From assembly GCA_963822445.1 (NCBI GenBank), contig CAWGHO010000002.1:1408001-1472000 (forward strand): DNA of 64,000 nucleotides, written 5' to 3'. The stretch is from an uncultured Acidobacteriota bacterium. Its GTDB lineage: Bacteria > Acidobacteriota > Thermoanaerobaculia > Gp7-AA8. This document shows, one piece after another, positions 42,995 through 50,153 of this stretch. Made by a program: the position numbers and the translations under genes. Position 1 is the first letter of the stretch; the number at the start of each line of letters is the position of its first letter. Under the pieces are notes generated by a model. It was not told where the DNA came from, did no database searches, and saw only the letters and a program-made list of their open reading frames with translations.

Positions 42995-43016
42995 GGCGAC
43001 ATCACACAGCGAAAAA

Positions 43017-43568
43017 CTAGTCCTTGCTCATGCGCCGGCGGGTCGGCGTCGTGGTCGTGGTGGTCGTCTCCTGAACCGTCGAGGACGAGGTCATCGGGAC
43101 CGTGGTGGTCTCGGTGCGGGTCGTCGTCGTGGAGACGGTCGGGGCGGTGGTGATGGTGCTGTCCTCGACCACGCGCGTGTCGACCGTGGTGGTCGTGTCG
43201 AGATCAGCGGTCGTGTCGACCGTGGTGCTGCTGATCATCGGTTCCACCGGAGTCACTTCGGTGACCGTGACCGTGCTTGTGCTGCGATCCGGGATCACGT
43301 TCACGTTGGTGTTGGTGCCGACGCCCGAGGCATTGCCCATTCCGGGCGCGGCGCTGGACGAATAGATGTTGCCGTCGCTGTCGACCTTGGCGGGGCCGGG
43401 AGCCGGGGCCACGGTGGAGTCGAGGCCCGCCGCTTCGGGACGGTGCTCGACGACGTCATCCTGGGTGTTGATGTCGTCATTCGTCGACGCGCATGCACCG
43501 ACGAGAAGGAGAGCCGCGAAAGCCGCCGCGGCAGCGGTGTTGTGCGTGAATTTTCTGATCATGATCAT
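43017..43568 (-). CDS. Thr-rich lipoprotein
   Basis: LLLVGAC lipobox; Thr/Val/Ser-rich; basic tail RRRMSKD; AGGAG SD. Confidence 0.75.
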   Translation of the reverse strand: MIMIRKFTHNTAAAAAFAALLLVGACASTNDDINTQDDVVEHRPEAAGLDSTVAPAPGPAKVDSDGNIYSSSAAPGMGNASGVGTNTNVNVIPDRSTSTVTVTEVTPVEPMISSTTVDTTADLDTTTTVDTRVVEDSTITTAPTVSTTTTRTETTTVPMTSSSTVQETTTTTTTPTRRRMSKD

Positions 43569-43623
43569 TCGTCTCCTGATTCATTGATGGCGGCAATCAG
43601 CGCCGTCACTCGCCGTTGACAAG

Positions 43624-43639
43624 GGCAAAACGCTTGCCT
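43624..43639 (-). promoter_or_regulatory. Putative sigma54 promoter of the Thr-rich lipoprotein
   Basis: Minus strand AGGCAAGCGTTTTGCC (GG-N10-GC). Confidence 0.55.
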
Positions 43640-43677
43640 GGTTATTTGTAGTCAGCAAGCTCGACTAGAATCGCCGG

Positions 43678-44976
43678 ATGGCTGCGTCGCGGGTCTACTC
43701 GGTCTCGGAGCTCATTCGCCACCTCACCGTCGATCTATCGCGGTATAGCGACATCGCCGTCGAGGGAGAAGTTTCCAATTTCACGCGTTCCGCGGCGGGT
43801 CACCTTTACTTTTCGATCAAGGACGCCCGCGCGCAGATCAAGGTCGTTCTGTTCGCCACGAACGCCCGTTTTCTGCGGTTCAAGATCGAGAACGGGCTGC
43901 AGCTGATCGTCCGAGGACGGATCTCGATCTATGAAGCGAAAGGCGATCTCCAGCTCAACGCGGTCAGCGCGGAGCCTGCCGGCCTGGGAGCGCTGCAGCT
44001 CGCCTTCGAACAGCTGAAGAAGCGGCTCGCCGAAGAAGGCCTGTTCGATGCGGCCCGCAAGAAGCCGATCCCGATGCTGCCCCAGCGCATCGCCGTCGTC
44101 ACCAGTCCGAGCGGCGCTGCGATTCGCGACATCCTCAACGTTCTGGGCCGCCGCTTCGAAGGGCTGTCGCTGCAGATCTATCCCGTCCGCGTGCAGGGTC
44201 CGACCGCCGGCCGCGAGATCGCCGCGGCCCTCCGTCATCTCTCGCGCTGGAAGCAGCACGACGTAGTGCTGATCTGTCGCGGCGGAGGCTCGCTGGAAGA
44301 CCTCTGGGCATTCAACGAGGAAGTCGTGGCTCGCGCCGTCGCGGCCTGCGAGATTCCGACGATCTCCGGCATCGGCCATGAGACCGACTTCACCATCACC
44401 GACTTCGTCGCCGATCTGCGCGCGCCGACGCCGTCCGCCGCGGCGGAGATCGTCATTCGCGCGAAGAGCGAGATCTGTACGCAGATCGATCACATGACCC
44501 GCCGCGTGCGGCACATCGTCGAAGGCCGCGTGCGCAACTATCGTCACGAGCTTCGCCACATCATGTCCTCCGATCGTCTCGGCCTCGTTCCGCGGCGGAT
44601 CGTTGCCGCGCGCGAACGTCTCGAGCGCCGGAGGGTGATGCTGTTCCGCATGCTCGACGTTCGCGCGAAATCGCTGCGGCGCCGGCTGATCGCTGCCGAT
44701 CAGCCCCTGCTGCGTTATCCCGCGCGAATCGTCCGCGATCGCGAGAAATTGCGGGCGACCATCGCCACGCTCAACGCCGTCTCGCCGCTTTCCGTCCTTT
44801 CGCGCGGATACGCGATCGCGTTTTCGCGCACGCGCCGGGGCCGGAAACCGATCCTCGACTCGGCCCAGGTCAAAGTCGGCGAGCAGATCGAGGTGCAGCT
44901 CAAACGAGGCCGGCTGGAGGCAACCGTCGACCGCCACACGCTCGGCGTCGAGAGTCTCTGGCCGGAAGTGCTATAA
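43678..44976 (+). CDS. xseA: Exodeoxyribonuclease VII large subunit
   Basis: GEVSN, GHLYFSIKD, RGGGSLEDL, GHETD, APTPSAAAE. Confidence 0.97.
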   Translation: MAASRVYSVSELIRHLTVDLSRYSDIAVEGEVSNFTRSAAGHLYFSIKDARAQIKVVLFATNARFLRFKIENGLQLIVRGRISIYEAKGDLQLNAVSAEPAGLGALQLAFEQLKKRLAEEGLFDAARKKPIPMLPQRIAVVTSPSGAAIRDILNVLGRRFEGLSLQIYPVRVQGPTAGREIAAALRHLSRWKQHDVVLICRGGGSLEDLWAFNEEVVARAVAACEIPTISGIGHETDFTITDFVADLRAPTPSAAAEIVIRAKSEICTQIDHMTRRVRHIVEGRVRNYRHELRHIMSSDRLGLVPRRIVAARERLERRRVMLFRMLDVRAKSLRRRLIAADQPLLRYPARIVRDREKLRATIATLNAVSPLSVLSRGYAIAFSRTRRGRKPILDSAQVKVGEQIEVQLKRGRLEATVDRHTLGVESLWPEVL

Positions 44977-44985
44977 CCCGCGCCG

Positions 44986-45255
44986 ATGGCCGCCCGCCGC
45001 ACCTCCAACGAGTTCGAGAAGTCCTTCCAGCAGCTCGAGAAAATCGTCCAGCGACTCGAGGCCGAGGAGCTGCCGCTCGATGAGTCGCTGCAGCTTTTCG
45101 AGGAAGGCATCCGCCTGTCCCGCTTCTGCCATCAGCGGCTCGAAGAGGTCGAGAAGAAGATCGAATTGATCCTCGCCGACGCGAAGGGGCAGCCGGTGAC
45201 CGAGCCGTTCGAAGAAGACGTCATCGACGAGGATGAGGAAGCCGCGCCGGAGTGA
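44986..45255 (+). CDS. xseB: Exodeoxyribonuclease VII small subunit
   Basis: FE....LE.IV..LE....LDESL..FEEG. Confidence 0.95.
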   Translation: MAARRTSNEFEKSFQQLEKIVQRLEAEELPLDESLQLFEEGIRLSRFCHQRLEEVEKKIELILADAKGQPVTEPFEEDVIDEDEEAAPE

Positions 45256-46157
45256 GCCTCAACGAATACCTTCAGTCGCGGCGCGCTCTGGTCGATCGAA
45301 CGCTCGACGCGAACCTTCCTCCCGCCGATACGAACCCGCCCATCATTCACGAGAGCATGCGCTACGCGGTCCTGGGCGGCGGCAAGCGCATCCGCCCGAT
45401 CGTGGCCATCGCCGCGGCGGAGACATGCGGCGCGGACATCGAGCCGCTGCTCGTCCATCTCTCCGCGATCGAGCTCATTCACACCTATTCGCTGGTGCAT
45501 GACGACCTGCCGGCGCTCGACAACGACGACATCCGTCGCGGGCGCAAGACCACGCACGTCGTGTACGGCGAGGCGATGGGGATCCTGGTCGGCGACGCGC
45601 TTTTGACCGAGGCGTTTTCTTGGCTGGCTCGGCCGCTGGCTGCGGTGGAGCCGTTGCGGCAATTGCGGGCGATCACGACGGTCGCGACGGCGGTGGACTC
45701 GACCGGGATGATCGGGGGGCAGGTCGCGGACATCGTCGCGGAACGCTCCCAGGAAGCGAGCGACGATCACGATTCGCTGGTCAGAGAGCTCGATTTCATC
45801 CACCGCAACAAGACCGGCAAGCTCTTCACGGCCTCGCTCCTCCTCGGCGGGCTCCTCGGCGGCGCGTCGGAAGACAACCTGAAGGCGCTTCAGCTCTACG
45901 GTGACGCCCTGGGGCTGGCCTTTCAGATCGTCGACGATCTGCTCGACATCGAGGAGTCGACGGCGACCCTCGGCAAGACCGCGGGAAAGGACGTTGCGCA
46001 GGGAAAGCTGACCTATCCGGCGCTTCTGGGCATCGAACAGGCACGGGCGGAGGTGGGGCGGCTCATGGGAATCGCCCTGGAGAACGCTGCTATCATCGCC
46101 GGTCCTGTGAATTACCTGGGTCCGCTCGCACGTTACATCTGCGAACGTAGGACCTAG
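45252..46157 (+). CDS. ispA: Farnesyl/geranylgeranyl diphosphate synthase
   Basis: GGKRIRP, HDDLPALDNDDIRRG, KT, FQIVDD. Confidence 0.95.
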   Translation: MSLNEYLQSRRALVDRTLDANLPPADTNPPIIHESMRYAVLGGGKRIRPIVAIAAAETCGADIEPLLVHLSAIELIHTYSLVHDDLPALDNDDIRRGRKTTHVVYGEAMGILVGDALLTEAFSWLARPLAAVEPLRQLRAITTVATAVDSTGMIGGQVADIVAERSQEASDDHDSLVRELDFIHRNKTGKLFTASLLLGGLLGGASEDNLKALQLYGDALGLAFQIVDDLLDIEESTATLGKTAGKDVAQGKLTYPALLGIEQARAEVGRLMGIALENAAIIAGPVNYLGPLARYICERRT

Positions 46158-46172
46158 GCGGAAAGCTCAGAC

Positions 46173-48194
46173 ATGAAACGACTTCTCGATTCCATCGAAT
46201 CCCCGCGTGATCTCCGGAAGCTCGATCGCACGCAGCTCCCCCAGGTCGCGCAGGAGATCCGCGACATGATCATCGACGTCGTGTCGAAGGTCGGCGGCCA
46301 TTTCGGCGGAAACCTCGGCATCGTCGAGTTGACCCTGGCCCTGCACTACGTCTTCGACACGCCGCGCGACCAGATCGTCTTCGACACGGGTCACCAGAGC
46401 TATCCGCACAAGCTCATCACCGGCCGCCGCGACACGTTCCACACCATCCGCCAGCACGGCGGGATTTCCGGATTCTGCAAACGGGAAGAGTCCGAGTACG
46501 ACGTCTTCAACGCGGGTCACGCGTCGACGTCGATCTCCGCGTCGCTGGGCATCGCCGTCGCGCGCGATTTCCGCAAAGAGGATTACCGCGTCGTCGGCGT
46601 GATCGGCGACGGTGCGCTGTCAGGCGGTCTGGCGCTGGAAGGCGTCAACCAGGCCGGCCATCTCAAGCGCAAGTTGATGATCGTGTTGAACGACAACGAC
46701 ATGTCGATCTCCACGAACGTCGGCGCGATGTCGGGTTACCTCAACTCGATCATCAAAGGACAGCGCTACGTCCAGCTCAAGGATCTGGCCAAGGGCGTGA
46801 TGGATCGCATCCCTCTCGTCGGCGGCAAGCTGCACGGCATCGCTCACGACATGGAACAGCTCCTCAAGAACATGGTCGTGCCGGGCACGCTGTTCGAGGA
46901 GCTCGGATTCAAATACCTCGGCCCGTACGACGGCCACGATCTCAAGTTCCTCATCGATCTCTTCGAGGAGCATCGCGATTACAACGGCCCGCTCCTGATT
47001 CACGTCATCACCAAGAAGGGGAAGGGCTACACGCCGGCCGAGAACAAGCCGATCTGGTCGCATGGCGTCACGCCGTTCGACATTCCGTCCGGCGAAGTGA
47101 AGAAGTCCGACAAGCCGCAGCCGCCGAGCTACACCGCTGTGTTCGCGGACGCGCTGACGCAGCTGGCGAAAGAAGATCCGAAAGTCGTGGCCATCACCGC
47201 GGCGATGCCGGAAGGCACGGGGCTCGACAAGTTCGCGAAGGTCTTCCCGGAGCGGATGTTCGACGTAGGCATCGCCGAAGAGCATGCGATCACGTTCAGC
47301 GGCGGCATGGCCACGCAGGGATTGAAGCCGGTCGCGGCGATCTACTCGACCTTCCTGCAGCGCGCGTTCGATCAGGTGTTCCACGACGTGGCGATCATGG
47401 ATCTGCCGGTCGTATTCGCGCTCGACCGCGGCGGCATCGCCGGCGCGGACGGCCCGACGCACCACGGCATCTACGACATGGCCTACCTGCGGGTCTTCCC
47501 GAACATGGTCTGCATGGCGCCGAAGGACGAGAACGAGCTGCGGCACATGCTCAAGACCGCGCTGAACTGCGGCCACCCCGCGTCGCTGCGCTACCCGCGC
47601 GGCAACGGGATCGGGGCGAAGCTCGATCCGGAGATCGTCGCGCTGCCGGTTGGTAAGGGCGAGGTGCTGCGCGAGGGTCCTGACGCCACGATCATCGCCA
47701 TCGGCAACGAAGTTTGGCCGTCCTACGAGGCGGCGGAGACACTCGCCAAAGAGAACATTAACGTCACTGTTATCAATGCTCGTTTCATCAAGCCTTTAGA
47801 TGATGAATTGATCAAGAAATACTGCACGCCTAATTCGTACGTCATTACCGTGGAAGAAGGCTCGCTGGCCGGCGGCTTCGGCAGCGCGGTGATGGAACGC
47901 TGCGAACAGCTCGGTCTGCGCGGCGTGAACTTCCACTCCATCGGCATCCCCGACGAGTACGTGCACCACGGCGCGCAGGACGTGCTCCGCGCGCAGTACG
48001 ACCTGCATGCGGAAGGGATCGCGAAGCGGGTGCGGGAGTTTCTCGAAGCAGCTCCCGCGGGGACCGTCGGCGACCTGGCGGCGCTGATACACAAGCACTT
48101 CCATGATGTGCCGGAAGAGGAGTTGCGGAAGTTGCCGGGCTCCGACCGCATCGACGAGGTCGTTTACGGCATCCCAAGCCGCGTCGCGAAGTAA
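46173..48194 (+). CDS. dxs: 1-deoxy-D-xylulose-5-phosphate synthase with ~49-aa antitoxin-like C-terminal extension
   Basis: GHQSYPHK, GDGA, LNDN, KGKGY, IAEEHA, DGPTHHG, RYPRG; extra tail after the usual ...GIAKRVREFL end. Confidence 0.97.
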   Translation: MKRLLDSIESPRDLRKLDRTQLPQVAQEIRDMIIDVVSKVGGHFGGNLGIVELTLALHYVFDTPRDQIVFDTGHQSYPHKLITGRRDTFHTIRQHGGISGFCKREESEYDVFNAGHASTSISASLGIAVARDFRKEDYRVVGVIGDGALSGGLALEGVNQAGHLKRKLMIVLNDNDMSISTNVGAMSGYLNSIIKGQRYVQLKDLAKGVMDRIPLVGGKLHGIAHDMEQLLKNMVVPGTLFEELGFKYLGPYDGHDLKFLIDLFEEHRDYNGPLLIHVITKKGKGYTPAENKPIWSHGVTPFDIPSGEVKKSDKPQPPSYTAVFADALTQLAKEDPKVVAITAAMPEGTGLDKFAKVFPERMFDVGIAEEHAITFSGGMATQGLKPVAAIYSTFLQRAFDQVFHDVAIMDLPVVFALDRGGIAGADGPTHHGIYDMAYLRVFPNMVCMAPKDENELRHMLKTALNCGHPASLRYPRGNGIGAKLDPEIVALPVGKGEVLREGPDATIIAIGNEVWPSYEAAETLAKENINVTVINARFIKPLDDELIKKYCTPNSYVITVEEGSLAGGFGSAVMERCEQLGLRGVNFHSIGIPDEYVHHGAQDVLRAQYDLHAEGIAKRVREFLEAAPAGTVGDLAALIHKHFHDVPEEELRKLPGSDRIDEVVYGIPSRVAK

Positions 48195-48599
48195 ATGCCG
48201 GAGTATTTAGCCGACACCTGGTATTTCGTCGCGCTGGCAAACCGGTTCGATGCCCAACACGCCGCGGCACTCCGTCTGGAGCCACTCGTGGCACGCAACC
48301 GGGTCGTCACGCACGACGGAGTGCTTTCGGAGGTGCTCTCCTTTTTCTCAGGGAGTGGCGCTTTCGGCCGGCAGCGAGCGACGGGTGTTGTTCGCGATGC
48401 ACTTCGGACGTTGCGCGTGCTGCCTGCCGACCGCCGGCTGTTCCTTGCCGCGCTCGATCGCTACGCCGCTCGCCTCGACAAGGAGTACTCCCTCGTCGAT
48501 TGCATGTCGATGGTTCTCATGGAACGACGCGGCACCACCCACGTCCTCACCAACGATCACCACTTCTCCCAGGCCGGTTTCATAGTCGTGAACGGATGA
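48195..48599 (+). CDS. vapC: PIN-domain VapC-family toxin
   Basis: ADT(7), E46, SLVDC, TNDHHF: the four PIN acidic positions are present; ATG directly follows the dxs TAA. Confidence 0.9.
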   Translation: MPEYLADTWYFVALANRFDAQHAAALRLEPLVARNRVVTHDGVLSEVLSFFSGSGAFGRQRATGVVRDALRTLRVLPADRRLFLAALDRYAARLDKEYSLVDCMSMVLMERRGTTHVLTNDHHFSQAGFIVVNG

Positions 48600-49387
48600 A
48601 AAAGCAGCGCCTCGACGTCGTCCTCGTCGAGCGCGGCCTCGTCGACACCCGTTCGAAAGCGCAGTCGCTGATCATGGCCCGGCGCGTTCTCGTGAACGGG
48701 CAGTTCGTCGACAAAGCCGGGGCGACGGTCGCCGCGGATGATGAGGTGACGGTCGCGGAGCTCGAGCATCCCTGGGTCGGGCGCGGGGGGATGAAGCTCG
48801 CTCACGCCCTCGAGGAATTCGCGATCAGCGTCGAAGGCAAGGTCTGCGCGGACATCGGCGCGTCGACCGGCGGATTCACCGACGTGATGCTGCAGAACGG
48901 CGCGAAGAAGGTCTATGCGATCGACGTCGGCTACGGCCAGCTCGACGTGAAGCTCCGCAACGATCCGCGGGTCGTCAATCGGGAGAAGGTCAATGCCCGC
49001 TACCTGCAGACGGACGCATTCGACGAGCCGATCGAATTCGTTTCCATGGATCTCTCCTTCATCTCCCTCACTCTCGTCCTACCCGCGGTCACGCGTTTTC
49101 TTCGCGGCGATCTCGTCGCGCTGATCAAGCCGCAGTTCGAGGTCGGGAAGCACGAGGTCGGAAAGGGCGGCATCGTGCGCGACGAGGTCAAGCGTCAGGC
49201 CGCGGTCGACAATGTCGTCGCGTTCGCCCGCGAGAACGGGTTCGACGTGAAGGGCGTGATCGAGAGTCCGGTGAAGGGTGCGGAAGGGAACGTCGAGTTC
49301 CTCATGTATGCAAGATGCGCCCTTACGGGCGACACTCTAGATACTCCCGCAGCCCCTCCCGCCACGACTCCGGAGCCACTCCCGTGA
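48596..49387 (+). CDS. tlyA: TlyA family rRNA 2'-O-methyltransferase
   Basis: S4-like RLD, DIGASTGGFTD, DVGYGQL, DLSFISL, IKPQFE, GNVEF. Confidence 0.95.
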   Translation: MKKQRLDVVLVERGLVDTRSKAQSLIMARRVLVNGQFVDKAGATVAADDEVTVAELEHPWVGRGGMKLAHALEEFAISVEGKVCADIGASTGGFTDVMLQNGAKKVYAIDVGYGQLDVKLRNDPRVVNREKVNARYLQTDAFDEPIEFVSMDLSFISLTLVLPAVTRFLRGDLVALIKPQFEVGKHEVGKGGIVRDEVKRQAAVDNVVAFARENGFDVKGVIESPVKGAEGNVEFLMYARCALTGDTLDTPAAPPATTPEPLP

Positions 49388-50153
49388 CCCGCTCGTAGCG
49401 CTCCGTCGAAAGCACCGAGTACGCCGGTCGTTTCGCGGGTCGCGGAAACTCATCGCTGGTCACAGGTTTCACCGGCTGATCGCCCGCGATCGCGACCGCG
49501 AAGTCGTACCACGAGCACTCGTCCTCATCGGCGTAATGCACAAGTCCGCGAACATCGGCGATGGCCAGCCGGATGATCGCGTTCGCGAGATGCGGCGTGT
49601 ACGTCGGCCGGCCGCGCTGATCGGAAACGACCCGCAGCGGATTCGTCCCTTTGCGCACCTGATTGCGGATCGCTTCGACGAAATTCGGACCATGAACGCC
49701 GAACAGCCACGAGGTCCGGACGATCAAATGCCGGTCCGCATGCGTCGCCGCGAGCTCGCCGAGCAGTTTCGAACGGCCGTATGCCGACAGCGGATTGGTG
49801 GCATCGGTGACTTCGTACGGCTCGCGTTTCGTCCCGTCGAACACGAAGTCGGTCGAGATCTGTACCAGCAGCGCGCCGTTCGCATTCGCGGCCGCGGCGA
49901 GCAATTCGACCGACGAGCCGTTGATCGCGTTCGCGGCGCTCTCTTCCGACTCGGCCTGATCGACCTTCGTGTAAGCCGCACAGTTCACGATGATCGACGG
50001 CGCATGCTCTGCGACGCACGCGTTCACCGCGCGGGAGTCGGTGATGTCGAGATCGGTGCGGGAAAGCGCGGCGACGTGCTCGCCGCGGTTGACGAGCTCT
50101 GCGTGAAGGTCGGTGCCGACCATGCCGCCGGCACCGGTAATCAGCCAATTCAC
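49323..50153 (-). CDS. rfbD: dTDP-4-dehydrorhamnose reductase
   Basis: GAGGMVG, AAYTKVD, STDFVFDG, YGRSK, DQRGRPT. Confidence 0.95.
   Translation of the reverse strand: MNWLITGAGGMVGTDLHAELVNRGEHVAALSRTDLDITDSRAVNACVAEHAPSIIVNCAAYTKVDQAESEESAANAINGSSVELLAAAANANGALLVQISTDFVFDGTKREPYEVTDATNPLSAYGRSKLLGELAATHADRHLIVRTSWLFGVHGPNFVEAIRNQVRKGTNPLRVVSDQRGRPTYTPHLANAIIRLAIADVRGLVHYADEDECSWYDFAVAIAGDQPVKPVTSDEFPRPAKRPAYSVLSTERYERVTGVAPESWREGLREYLECRP

Follow-up and report, generated by a model that had tools for sequence, protein, structure and literature searches.

The dxs gene considered here lies in a window of 64,000 nucleotides (nt), the whole stretch of DNA analysed, taken from contig CAWGHO010000002.1 of an uncultured soil bacterium of the Acidobacteriota. 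The gene encodes 1-deoxy-D-xylulose-5-phosphate synthase (DXS) and continues in frame into an additional C-terminal segment, the tail, which is followed directly by a gene for a predicted VapC-type PIN-domain RNase (Table 1). A Pfam scan of the cluster proteins gives the order xseA-xseB-ispA-dxs-PIN-tlyA, and the TGA of the PIN gene overlaps the ATG of tlyA at 48596 (ATGA). An earlier sequence-only reading of this DNA had described a DXS running about 49 amino acids (aa) past its usual end, a dxs TAA immediately before the ATG of a PIN protein with four catalytic acidic residues, ATGA coupling of this vapC to tlyA inside the xseA-xseB-ispA-dxs-tlyA cluster, and the lack of a free-standing antitoxin gene. 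The TAA-ATG junction and the four acidic residues are indeed seen, sequence and Pfam agree on the coupling and the cluster, and the list of open reading frames (ORFs) holds no small free-standing ORF at either the dxs/PIN or the PIN/tlyA junction.

Table 1. Features of the dxs-PIN locus, in positions of the window
Feature	Position	Strand	Basis
xseA, exonuclease VII large subunit, first in cluster	43678..44976	+	Pfam Exonuc_VII_L, E 5.3e-89
xseB, exonuclease VII small subunit	44986..45255	+	Pfam Exonuc_VII_S, E 4.2e-21
ispA-like polyprenyl synthetase	45252..46157	+	Pfam polyprenyl_synt, E 3.9e-56
dxs ORF, 673 aa, core and tail	46173..48194	+	ORF list
DXS core, residues 1-624	46173..48044	+	TIGR00204 over residues 7-624, 836 bits
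DXS C-terminal tail, 49 aa, residues 625-673, EAAP…SRVAK	48045..48191	+	beyond DXS profile
dxs TAA (48192-48194) abutting PIN-gene ATG (48195), translational-coupling junction	48192..48197	+	sequence
VapC-type PIN-domain RNase (predicted), 134 aa, VapC20-like	48195..48599	+	Pfam PIN, E 1.3e-8
tlyA-like rRNA 2'-O-methyltransferase	48596..49387	+	Pfam FtsJ E 1.3e-44, S4 E 4.7e-13

The match of the window DXS to the NCBIfam model TIGR00204 (dxs) is above the cut-off of 466 bits. Like the canonical enzyme defined by that model, the protein is full length over residues 1-624 and has the three Pfam domains DXP_synthase_N, Transket_pyr and Transketolase_C, the last of which ends at residue 616; the length of the extension had therefore been read correctly. 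It is the sole DXS of its genome, in which tblastn gave no other match above 29% identity, and the same genome holds one PIN of the subfamily to which the window PIN belongs. Across 27 aligned tails the mean column identity is 47%, with D37, E38, G42 and K49 invariant (27/27) and P23, S33 and V40 nearly so, and the consensus reads G…T.G…M..E….IPEE.L..(LP or hEKGkD)SD.IDEVVYG..R..AK. Immediately N-terminal of the tail comes domain III of DXS, and the tail has no ribbon-helix-helix (RHH) match in Pfam. No DNA-binding family of Pfam or NCBIfam was found for residues 615-673 or for the 54 aa read from the GTG at 48030 (GVG...). A second match to the tail in the window's own genome (L003, E 1.1) was rejected as spurious, being antisense within a longer ORF.

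The fusion is conserved across the family. A search of 61 related genomes with the PIN protein, the window's own genome being counted among them, gave matches in 32: the window's own, 29 of the 34 other members of the genus, and a single genome from each of two other genera in the family. Of the relatives' loci, 28 contain the dxs 3' end together with the PIN gene, and in every one of them the dxs frame stays open for 49-58 codons and the tail reading frame ends at, or overlaps, the PIN start; two of these loci (L009 and L012) come from the unpublished genomes G002 and G025, and the result is unchanged without them. G098 and G128, from two further genera of the family, have the same in-frame dxs-tail-PIN arrangement, and altogether the fusion spans 30 relatives in four genera of one Acidobacteriota family, with no intervening stop. 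Stop and start codons abut or overlap (TAAATG, TAATG, GTGATG, TAGATG, TGAATG) in 30 of the 31 loci listed. The exception is a dxs-linked PIN of G009 (L017:1470-1530) that has no ATG, GTG or TTG where the start is expected and where its relatives have ATGGAG, which may be an early silencing of the toxin or a sequencing error. Public protein clusters bearing the tail number 26 (27 with the window's own), measure 635-712 aa or are truncated entries, and are named only '1-deoxy-D-xylulose-5-phosphate synthase', some of them being labelled Thermoanaerobaculia. A lost stop, a frameshift or a misassembly in the window genome, against which the sequence-only reading had cautioned, has next to no probability, because 30 independent relatives and the 26 public clusters all carry this extension in frame. 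No public sequencing run was found to contain the window stretch (best share, 0.09 of sampled words), and four soil metatranscriptome contig sets, searched at 80% likeness, yielded only conserved dxs and tlyA parts of relatives, the tail-PIN junction never being bridged.

The PIN protein matches Pfam PIN with 35.9 bits (cut-off 23.6), and its residues D7, E46, D102 and D121 are invariant in all 28 dxs-linked PINs. Its nearest solved relative is VapC20 of Mycobacterium tuberculosis (PDB 5wzf), to which it is related in sequence with a profile match of E 1.1e-16 over residues 3-131. VapC20 (PDB 5wzf, 5wz4) is described as a true toxin, an endonuclease acting on the sarcin-ricin loop in 23S rRNA, that is neutralised by a free-standing VapB20, unlike the DXS-borne tail found here (PMC7891357). 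The median pairwise ratio of nonsynonymous to synonymous substitution rates (dN/dS), in a set that takes in two loci from unpublished genomes, rises from 0.15 in tlyA and 0.17 in the dxs C-terminus to 0.27 in the PIN and 0.47 in the tail. To judge from this ratio and from the invariant acidic quartet, the PIN gene is under selection. Its position beside an rRNA methyltransferase gene is perhaps merely the landing site of a cassette.

Comparison of profiles indicates that the DXS tail is homologous to the C-termini of antitoxins, those of FitA-like RHH antitoxins included. When 27 DXS tails (alignment A1) were compared with 14 free-standing modules (A4), hhalign returned a probability of 96.7% and an E-value of 3.7e-10 over 40 columns. 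The pattern VPEEE..KLP.D....DHY.YG, which the sequence-only reading had named for the C-termini of small antitoxins of this VapC type, was found in real sequences and is statistically linked to the tail. The traits of this module, that is, a helix, (V/I)P(D/E)E(E/D), LP.(S)D and D-x-x-(L/V)-Y-G at the extreme C-terminus with a PIN gene next, are all present in the tail. In related genomes, paralogous PINs are each preceded, with overlapping or abutting stop and start codons, by a protein that ends in the tail motif: L050 and L051 (about 300 aa) end in …LPAEEWSRVPTDLAANLDHYLYG, L031 (355 aa) in …DDEMAKVPPANSRTIDRKLYGKK, and L052 and L053 (about 90 aa) in …EGPEDWSENLDDYLY. The free-standing antitoxin L058, of 89 aa, ends in …RPVSEMIRDLWADMPDDVRAKLPSDGASQVDHYVYGLPKRDE and is followed by a PIN gene whose product is 50% identical to that of the window; its N-terminus scores 20.8 bits with RHH_1 (cut-off 20.5) and E 0.0018 with a FitA-like RHH, and its relatives carry PF22513 (FitA-like RHH), some being named 'plasmid stability protein' or 'antitoxin FitA-like' at the source.

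A scan of 401 genomes of the phylum with the tail profile, which scored 16 candidates per genome and was of low sensitivity, gave matches at E ≤ 0.01 in seven genomes, comprising three dxs fusions, the L058 antitoxin and three weak matches within long ORFs. The PIN profile had matches in 84 of the same genomes; 26 of the 30 loci returned were examined, three others being dxs loci already in the set and one coming from an unpublished genome. For 13 of the 16 best non-dxs PINs (at least 80 bits), the ORF upstream terminates in [DN]H[YD][LIVY][YHA][GSN], the exceptions being L073, L077 and L079. In these upstream proteins, the same C-terminal module sits on differing N-termini: an RHH/FitA-like type (L058 by Pfam; L065, L067 and L071 by eye), a helical type 'L..L….Q.VL.F' (by eye), an AF2212-like type (L053 only, E 0.005, below the cut-off) and a family of roughly 300 aa without a Pfam match. 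More distant PINs (60-75 bits) follow RHH-like or Phd-like antitoxins (by eye) with the looser ends …PVDEVVYR, …DHDRYLDEAFE and …DHDELLYPK. Members of the long family, of 300-355 aa (L031:1741-2805 on the minus strand, L050:137-1036, L051 and L074), adjoin VapC20-like PINs on the upstream side and represent a large, uncharacterised 'antitoxin' scaffold. At L073 (G222:C66), a VapC20-like PIN (118 bits) lies in an open frame of 274 aa with no coding-looking ORF upstream, and could be another fusion or an orphan toxin.

The module also occurs well outside the family. Among 1.84 billion representatives, the tail profile gave 32 matches at E ≤ 0.001, of which 30 were fetched (P0018 and P0027, long and in several stretches, were left out). 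Seven of the 30 (P0001-P0006 and P0010) bear the end of the DXS core, judged by eye, and among the remainder are short or chimeric pieces. The module sits at the extreme C-terminus of about 14 (P0014, P0017, P0019-P0024, P0025, and P0028-P0032 except P0029), which are small proteins of 34-152 aa whose N-termini are of other kinds and which score E 1.4e-7 to 7.7e-4 with the tail profile. Over the whole library, the E-values of this profile with small proteins other than DXS are put at 5e-7 to 7e-4. None of 10 free-standing module carriers compared with Pfam had a match at E ≤ 0.001. A search with the single protein P0020 led to planctomycete loci and to locus L091, described below. The planctomycete RHH antitoxins end in …SSQRIDEVVYGHKP and are followed by a PIN gene, which is intact in three of the four loci; the S[DQ]RIDEVVYG at their ends is the nearest free-standing form of the motif. 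The module is common, with at least 3,852 clusters at E ≤ 0.001 among 8,000 scored candidates, mostly 'hypothetical proteins' of 85-89 aa; in the A4 search, which was aimed at longer proteins, the best 120 of these at least 3,852 matches are all of 85-306 aa. P0014 and P0028 have two tandem module copies per chain (…DQLDHYTYGVP… and …DNLDHYIYGSPKLR in P0028), and such proteins might bind two PINs.

The tail is predicted to bind the PIN. When the PIN and tail alignments were folded together, ipSAE was 0.87, 0.89 and 0.87 in three runs, while the best of three controls reached 0.01; the runs share at least 92% of contacts, and the partner has a predicted local distance difference test (pLDDT) score of at least 78. 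In the calibration of the tool, 58 of the 80 solved complexes came up to the ipSAE mark, as did 2 of the 110 mismatched pairs; this calibration is only rough here because self-made alignments went in. The confident interface takes in tail residues 4-43 and PIN residues 4, 6, 8-21, 28-37, 39, 46, 49-74 (in part), 99, 118 and 120, and corresponds to the face of the PIN that bears D7, E46, D102 and D121; a complex of tail and VapC, foreseen when the tail was first taken for a toxin-neutralising segment, is thus predicted by the model. When domain III of DXS plus the tail was modelled with AlphaFold2 without the PIN, the domain had a pLDDT of about 80-95 and the tail 33-51, with one short helix. 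In these models, a tail of low pLDDT alone that becomes ordered on the PIN would show the behaviour expected of an antitoxin segment folding on its toxin.

The distribution of tail and PIN among the genomes is in line with the covariation that the sequence-only reading had anticipated. Both a tail and a full-length PIN are present in 30 genomes, namely the window's, 26 of the genus, G036, G098 and G128 (with G009 lacking a standard PIN start), and neither is present in seven genomes of the family (G015, G021, G114, G141, G265, G350 and G385) or in three outgroup genomes (G037-G039). The tail is intact and the PIN damaged in three genomes, G027 and G030 by internal deletions that keep both ends and G029 by a frameshift, while in G026 both are frameshifted and tlyA also aligns poorly, so that sequencing errors are possible. 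In two more the tail is decayed and the PIN gone: G014 keeps 45 aa with a legible motif, and G031 keeps 26 aa with an internal deletion. No genome combined an intact PIN with a tail that was absent or disrupted (0 of 30). In the seven tail-less family genomes, DXS ends 11-19 aa beyond the core, with tlyA downstream in six; no tlyA match was found in the locus of G350, and in G035 no DXS was found with the query used. A decay in which the toxin goes first and the antitoxin later is what would be predicted for a harmful RNase with an inhibitor encoded in cis.

A rough FastTree phylogeny of the dxs C-terminus plus tlyA (42 loci, with four dropped for a short or missing tlyA; support values were not examined) places module-less genomes at several separate positions within the module-bearing clade, a pattern consistent with one gain followed by several losses. 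Among 28 genomes, tail distances correlate with PIN distances at r 0.42 and weakly with those of the flanking genes, at 0.15 and 0.12. The partial Mantel correlation between tail and PIN is 0.41, a value reached in 0 of 2000 permutations, whereas the controls against tlyA give -0.02. Tail and PIN therefore appear to evolve together. In 30 loci, median dS is 1.17 for the tail and 1.34 for the PIN, and 0.70 for the flanking dxs C-terminus and tlyA; these high values, together with the near-zero correlation with the flanks, may be due to exchange of the cassette between species by recombination, or to differing codon usage.

Taken together, these results make it probable that a vapBC-type cassette lies between dxs and tlyA, in which the antitoxin has been reduced to its toxin-binding C-terminal module and fused to DXS. 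With good confidence, and on the strength of the models, the tail would also bind and restrain the PIN. The inhibition, the toxicity, the RNA target and the trigger of PIN release we infer in the following scheme. An antitoxin would have lost its own start and its DNA-binding domain, its C-terminal module persisting in frame on the end of DXS, and DXS would be synthesised with a flexible 49-aa tail. The PIN RNase would be translated from the dxs mRNA by coupling, because the dxs stop and the PIN start abut. The tail would wrap over the PIN beside the acidic active site and render it inactive, and the RNase would be kept on DXS with a maximum of one PIN per tail. A tail without a DNA-binding domain would allow no antitoxin-mediated autoregulation, and the PIN level would track expression of the dxs operon. 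Free PIN would arise solely upon clipping or degradation of the tail or loss of DXS, and the released PIN would cut RNA, possibly 23S rRNA given its likeness to VapC20. No other candidate antitoxin was found in the window's own genome, where the A4 module hidden Markov model (HMM), run over 108,313 six-frame ORFs, ranks the DXS ORF first.

Several observations weigh against this interpretation. By the A4 HMM, the window tail alone scores E 0.44 and 12.6 bits, and significance comes from the comparison of profile with profile. The tail (residues 625-673) matches no family in Pfam or NCBIfam, and a search of PDB sequences with the tail profile gave only chance-level matches, the best being a centrin at E 0.019. 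The favourable complex model may in part reflect likeness to VapBC complexes, which have already been solved, and joint recombination alone could yield the Mantel result because tail and PIN are adjacent. At L091, in a Dehalococcoidia metagenome-assembled genome, two tandem small genes bear the module and no PIN lies within 3.2 kb. The sequence-only reading had also allowed that tails in dxs genes without vapC would speak against a fused antitoxin, and such tails exist in part: legible tails without a working PIN occur in G027, G029 and G030, and in G014 as a diverged tail of 45 aa with no PIN. Decay of the toxin before the antitoxin fits these cases; tails that outlive their PIN could also reflect recent loss or a second role independent of the PIN. 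The two L091 genes (L091:1236-3160) encode proteins of 72-77 aa (MTAKEQL…SD.[IV]DEVVY.) that are the nearest free-standing version of the DXS tail, and they are followed by an RtcB-like ORF (an RNA ligase, by eye), which sets a putative toxin-binding module beside an RNA-repair gene.

The surviving tails have to be set against other accounts of the segment. They would be expected if the tail were a lineage-specific extension of DXS with its own role in regulation, localisation or oligomerisation, and the PIN a coincidental neighbour, as would the 45-aa tail of G014; yet the homology of the tail to antitoxin C-termini, its joint presence or absence with the PIN in the family (30 genomes with both, seven with neither) and its predicted disorder on DXS but order on the PIN make such a coincidence most improbable. 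A different possibility is that internal initiation in the frame of dxs, either at GTG 48030, which the sequence-only reading had put forward as a start, or elsewhere, yields the tail as a free peptide of about 50-54 aa, in addition to or in place of the fused form, the fusion to DXS then being incidental. That GTG is present, lying 15 nt ahead of where the DXS core ends, and has GAAGGGA-like bases upstream in most tail-bearing loci. As a start, however, it gains no specific support, since the same GTG and purine-rich context are found equally in tail-less dxs (L036, L037, L096, L097 and others), where they merely encode the conserved EGIAKRVREF, so that their conservation is uninformative. 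In addition, no stop separates core from tail in any of the 30 relatives, so that translation of dxs must always give the full-length fusion, and the promoter scan found no sigma-70-like promoter in 43000-50000; a nested gene thus seems quite improbable.

A further interpretation is that the module has been domesticated and the PIN has ceased to be a growth-arresting toxin, acting instead as a DXS-anchored RNase or regulatory subunit (for example in rRNA processing with TlyA, or in the control of DXS) and the tail serving as a docking peptide rather than as an inhibitor. The active site of the PIN has stayed intact over four genera, with a dN/dS of 0.27, and has outlasted what would be expected of a purely selfish chromosomal cassette; its place between dxs and an rRNA methyltransferase gene is fixed, and there is no DNA-binding domain through which the usual toxin-antitoxin (TA) autoregulation could operate. 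Against this, eight genomes of the genus have no intact PIN copy, and a gene lost so repeatedly must be dispensable. The toxin-first decay, with no case of a PIN without its tail among 30, is as a harmful RNase predicts, the predicted interface covers the active-site face, and the nearest solved relative, VapC20, is described as a true toxin (PMC7891357). We therefore regard domestication as decidedly unlikely, and a tail that restrains a toxin as the better account. A more specific form of the latter is a checkpoint, in which the DXS-tethered PIN would be inactive while DXS is intact and abundant, and degradation of DXS or clipping of the tail, for example by stress-induced proteases, would free a VapC20-like RNase and shut down translation. 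This is offered tentatively, as rather unlikely; were it true, ribosome integrity would be coupled to the first enzyme of isoprenoid synthesis, and the turnover of a metabolic enzyme would serve as the 'labile antitoxin', an arrangement selected for and retained for as long as several genera have existed. The metabolic sensor and the addiction to a core operon that the sequence-only reading had put forward are likewise speculative.

As a rule, a type II antitoxin is a small and labile DNA-binding protein that regulates its own expression. The present locus shares several features with the VapBC and FitAB systems, which pair a PIN toxin with an antitoxin of RHH, AbrB or Phd type: the PIN has the four acidic residues, an antitoxin-type coding sequence lies directly upstream in translational coupling with it, the C-terminal segment is predicted to be disordered by itself and to lie over the active-site face of the toxin, and the tail is, by profile comparison, a homologue of the module that ends FitA-like RHH antitoxins. 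Unlike in those systems, the upstream sequence is the 3' end of dxs rather than a separate gene, and the putative neutralising segment is the C-terminus of a 624-aa enzyme of an essential pathway. The locus lacks a dedicated antitoxin gene as well as any domain for DNA binding or dimerisation, and therefore has no conditional autoregulation. The N-terminal DNA-binding domain of VapB-type antitoxins (RHH, AbrB, Phd/YefM or helix-turn-helix) is absent from the DXS tail, so that the locus would work like a type II TA pair but lacks one defining feature of the family. EzeT and CapRel are single-chain TA proteins, each uniting an antitoxin with the toxin that belongs to it. At the present locus, too, the putative neutralising element is a covalent part of a larger protein instead of a separate small and labile one, but the protein that carries it is an unrelated metabolic enzyme, the toxin being a separate polypeptide. 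The tail-less DXS proteins of sister genera and outgroups differ in turn, ending 11-19 aa past the core in unrelated sequence that runs straight into tlyA.

In the full-text literature, from whose coverage supplements and subscription journals are excluded, we found no paper that connects a fused antitoxin with dxs or with any metabolic enzyme at all. A neutralising peptide carried by an essential-pathway enzyme and kept across about four genera would be a departure from the usual design of antitoxins, since the supply, stability and stoichiometry of the antitoxin would be set by a metabolic enzyme. The family may provide a natural setting in which to study how TA modules on chromosomes come to be fixed or domesticated, and whether a toxin's release can be tied to the way one particular protein is turned over. 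The comparison also points to a very widespread, putatively toxin-binding C-terminal motif that occurs on many N-terminal scaffolds and has no Pfam family. TA finders based on gene pairs would miss the arrangement, because public records name these proteins simply DXS. As to signals within the cluster, nine weak terminator-like hairpins were counted in 43000-50000, against 4.7 ± 2.1 in shuffles, and one terminator-like hairpin with a T-run lies within the PIN coding sequence, at 48318-48341 of the plus strand.

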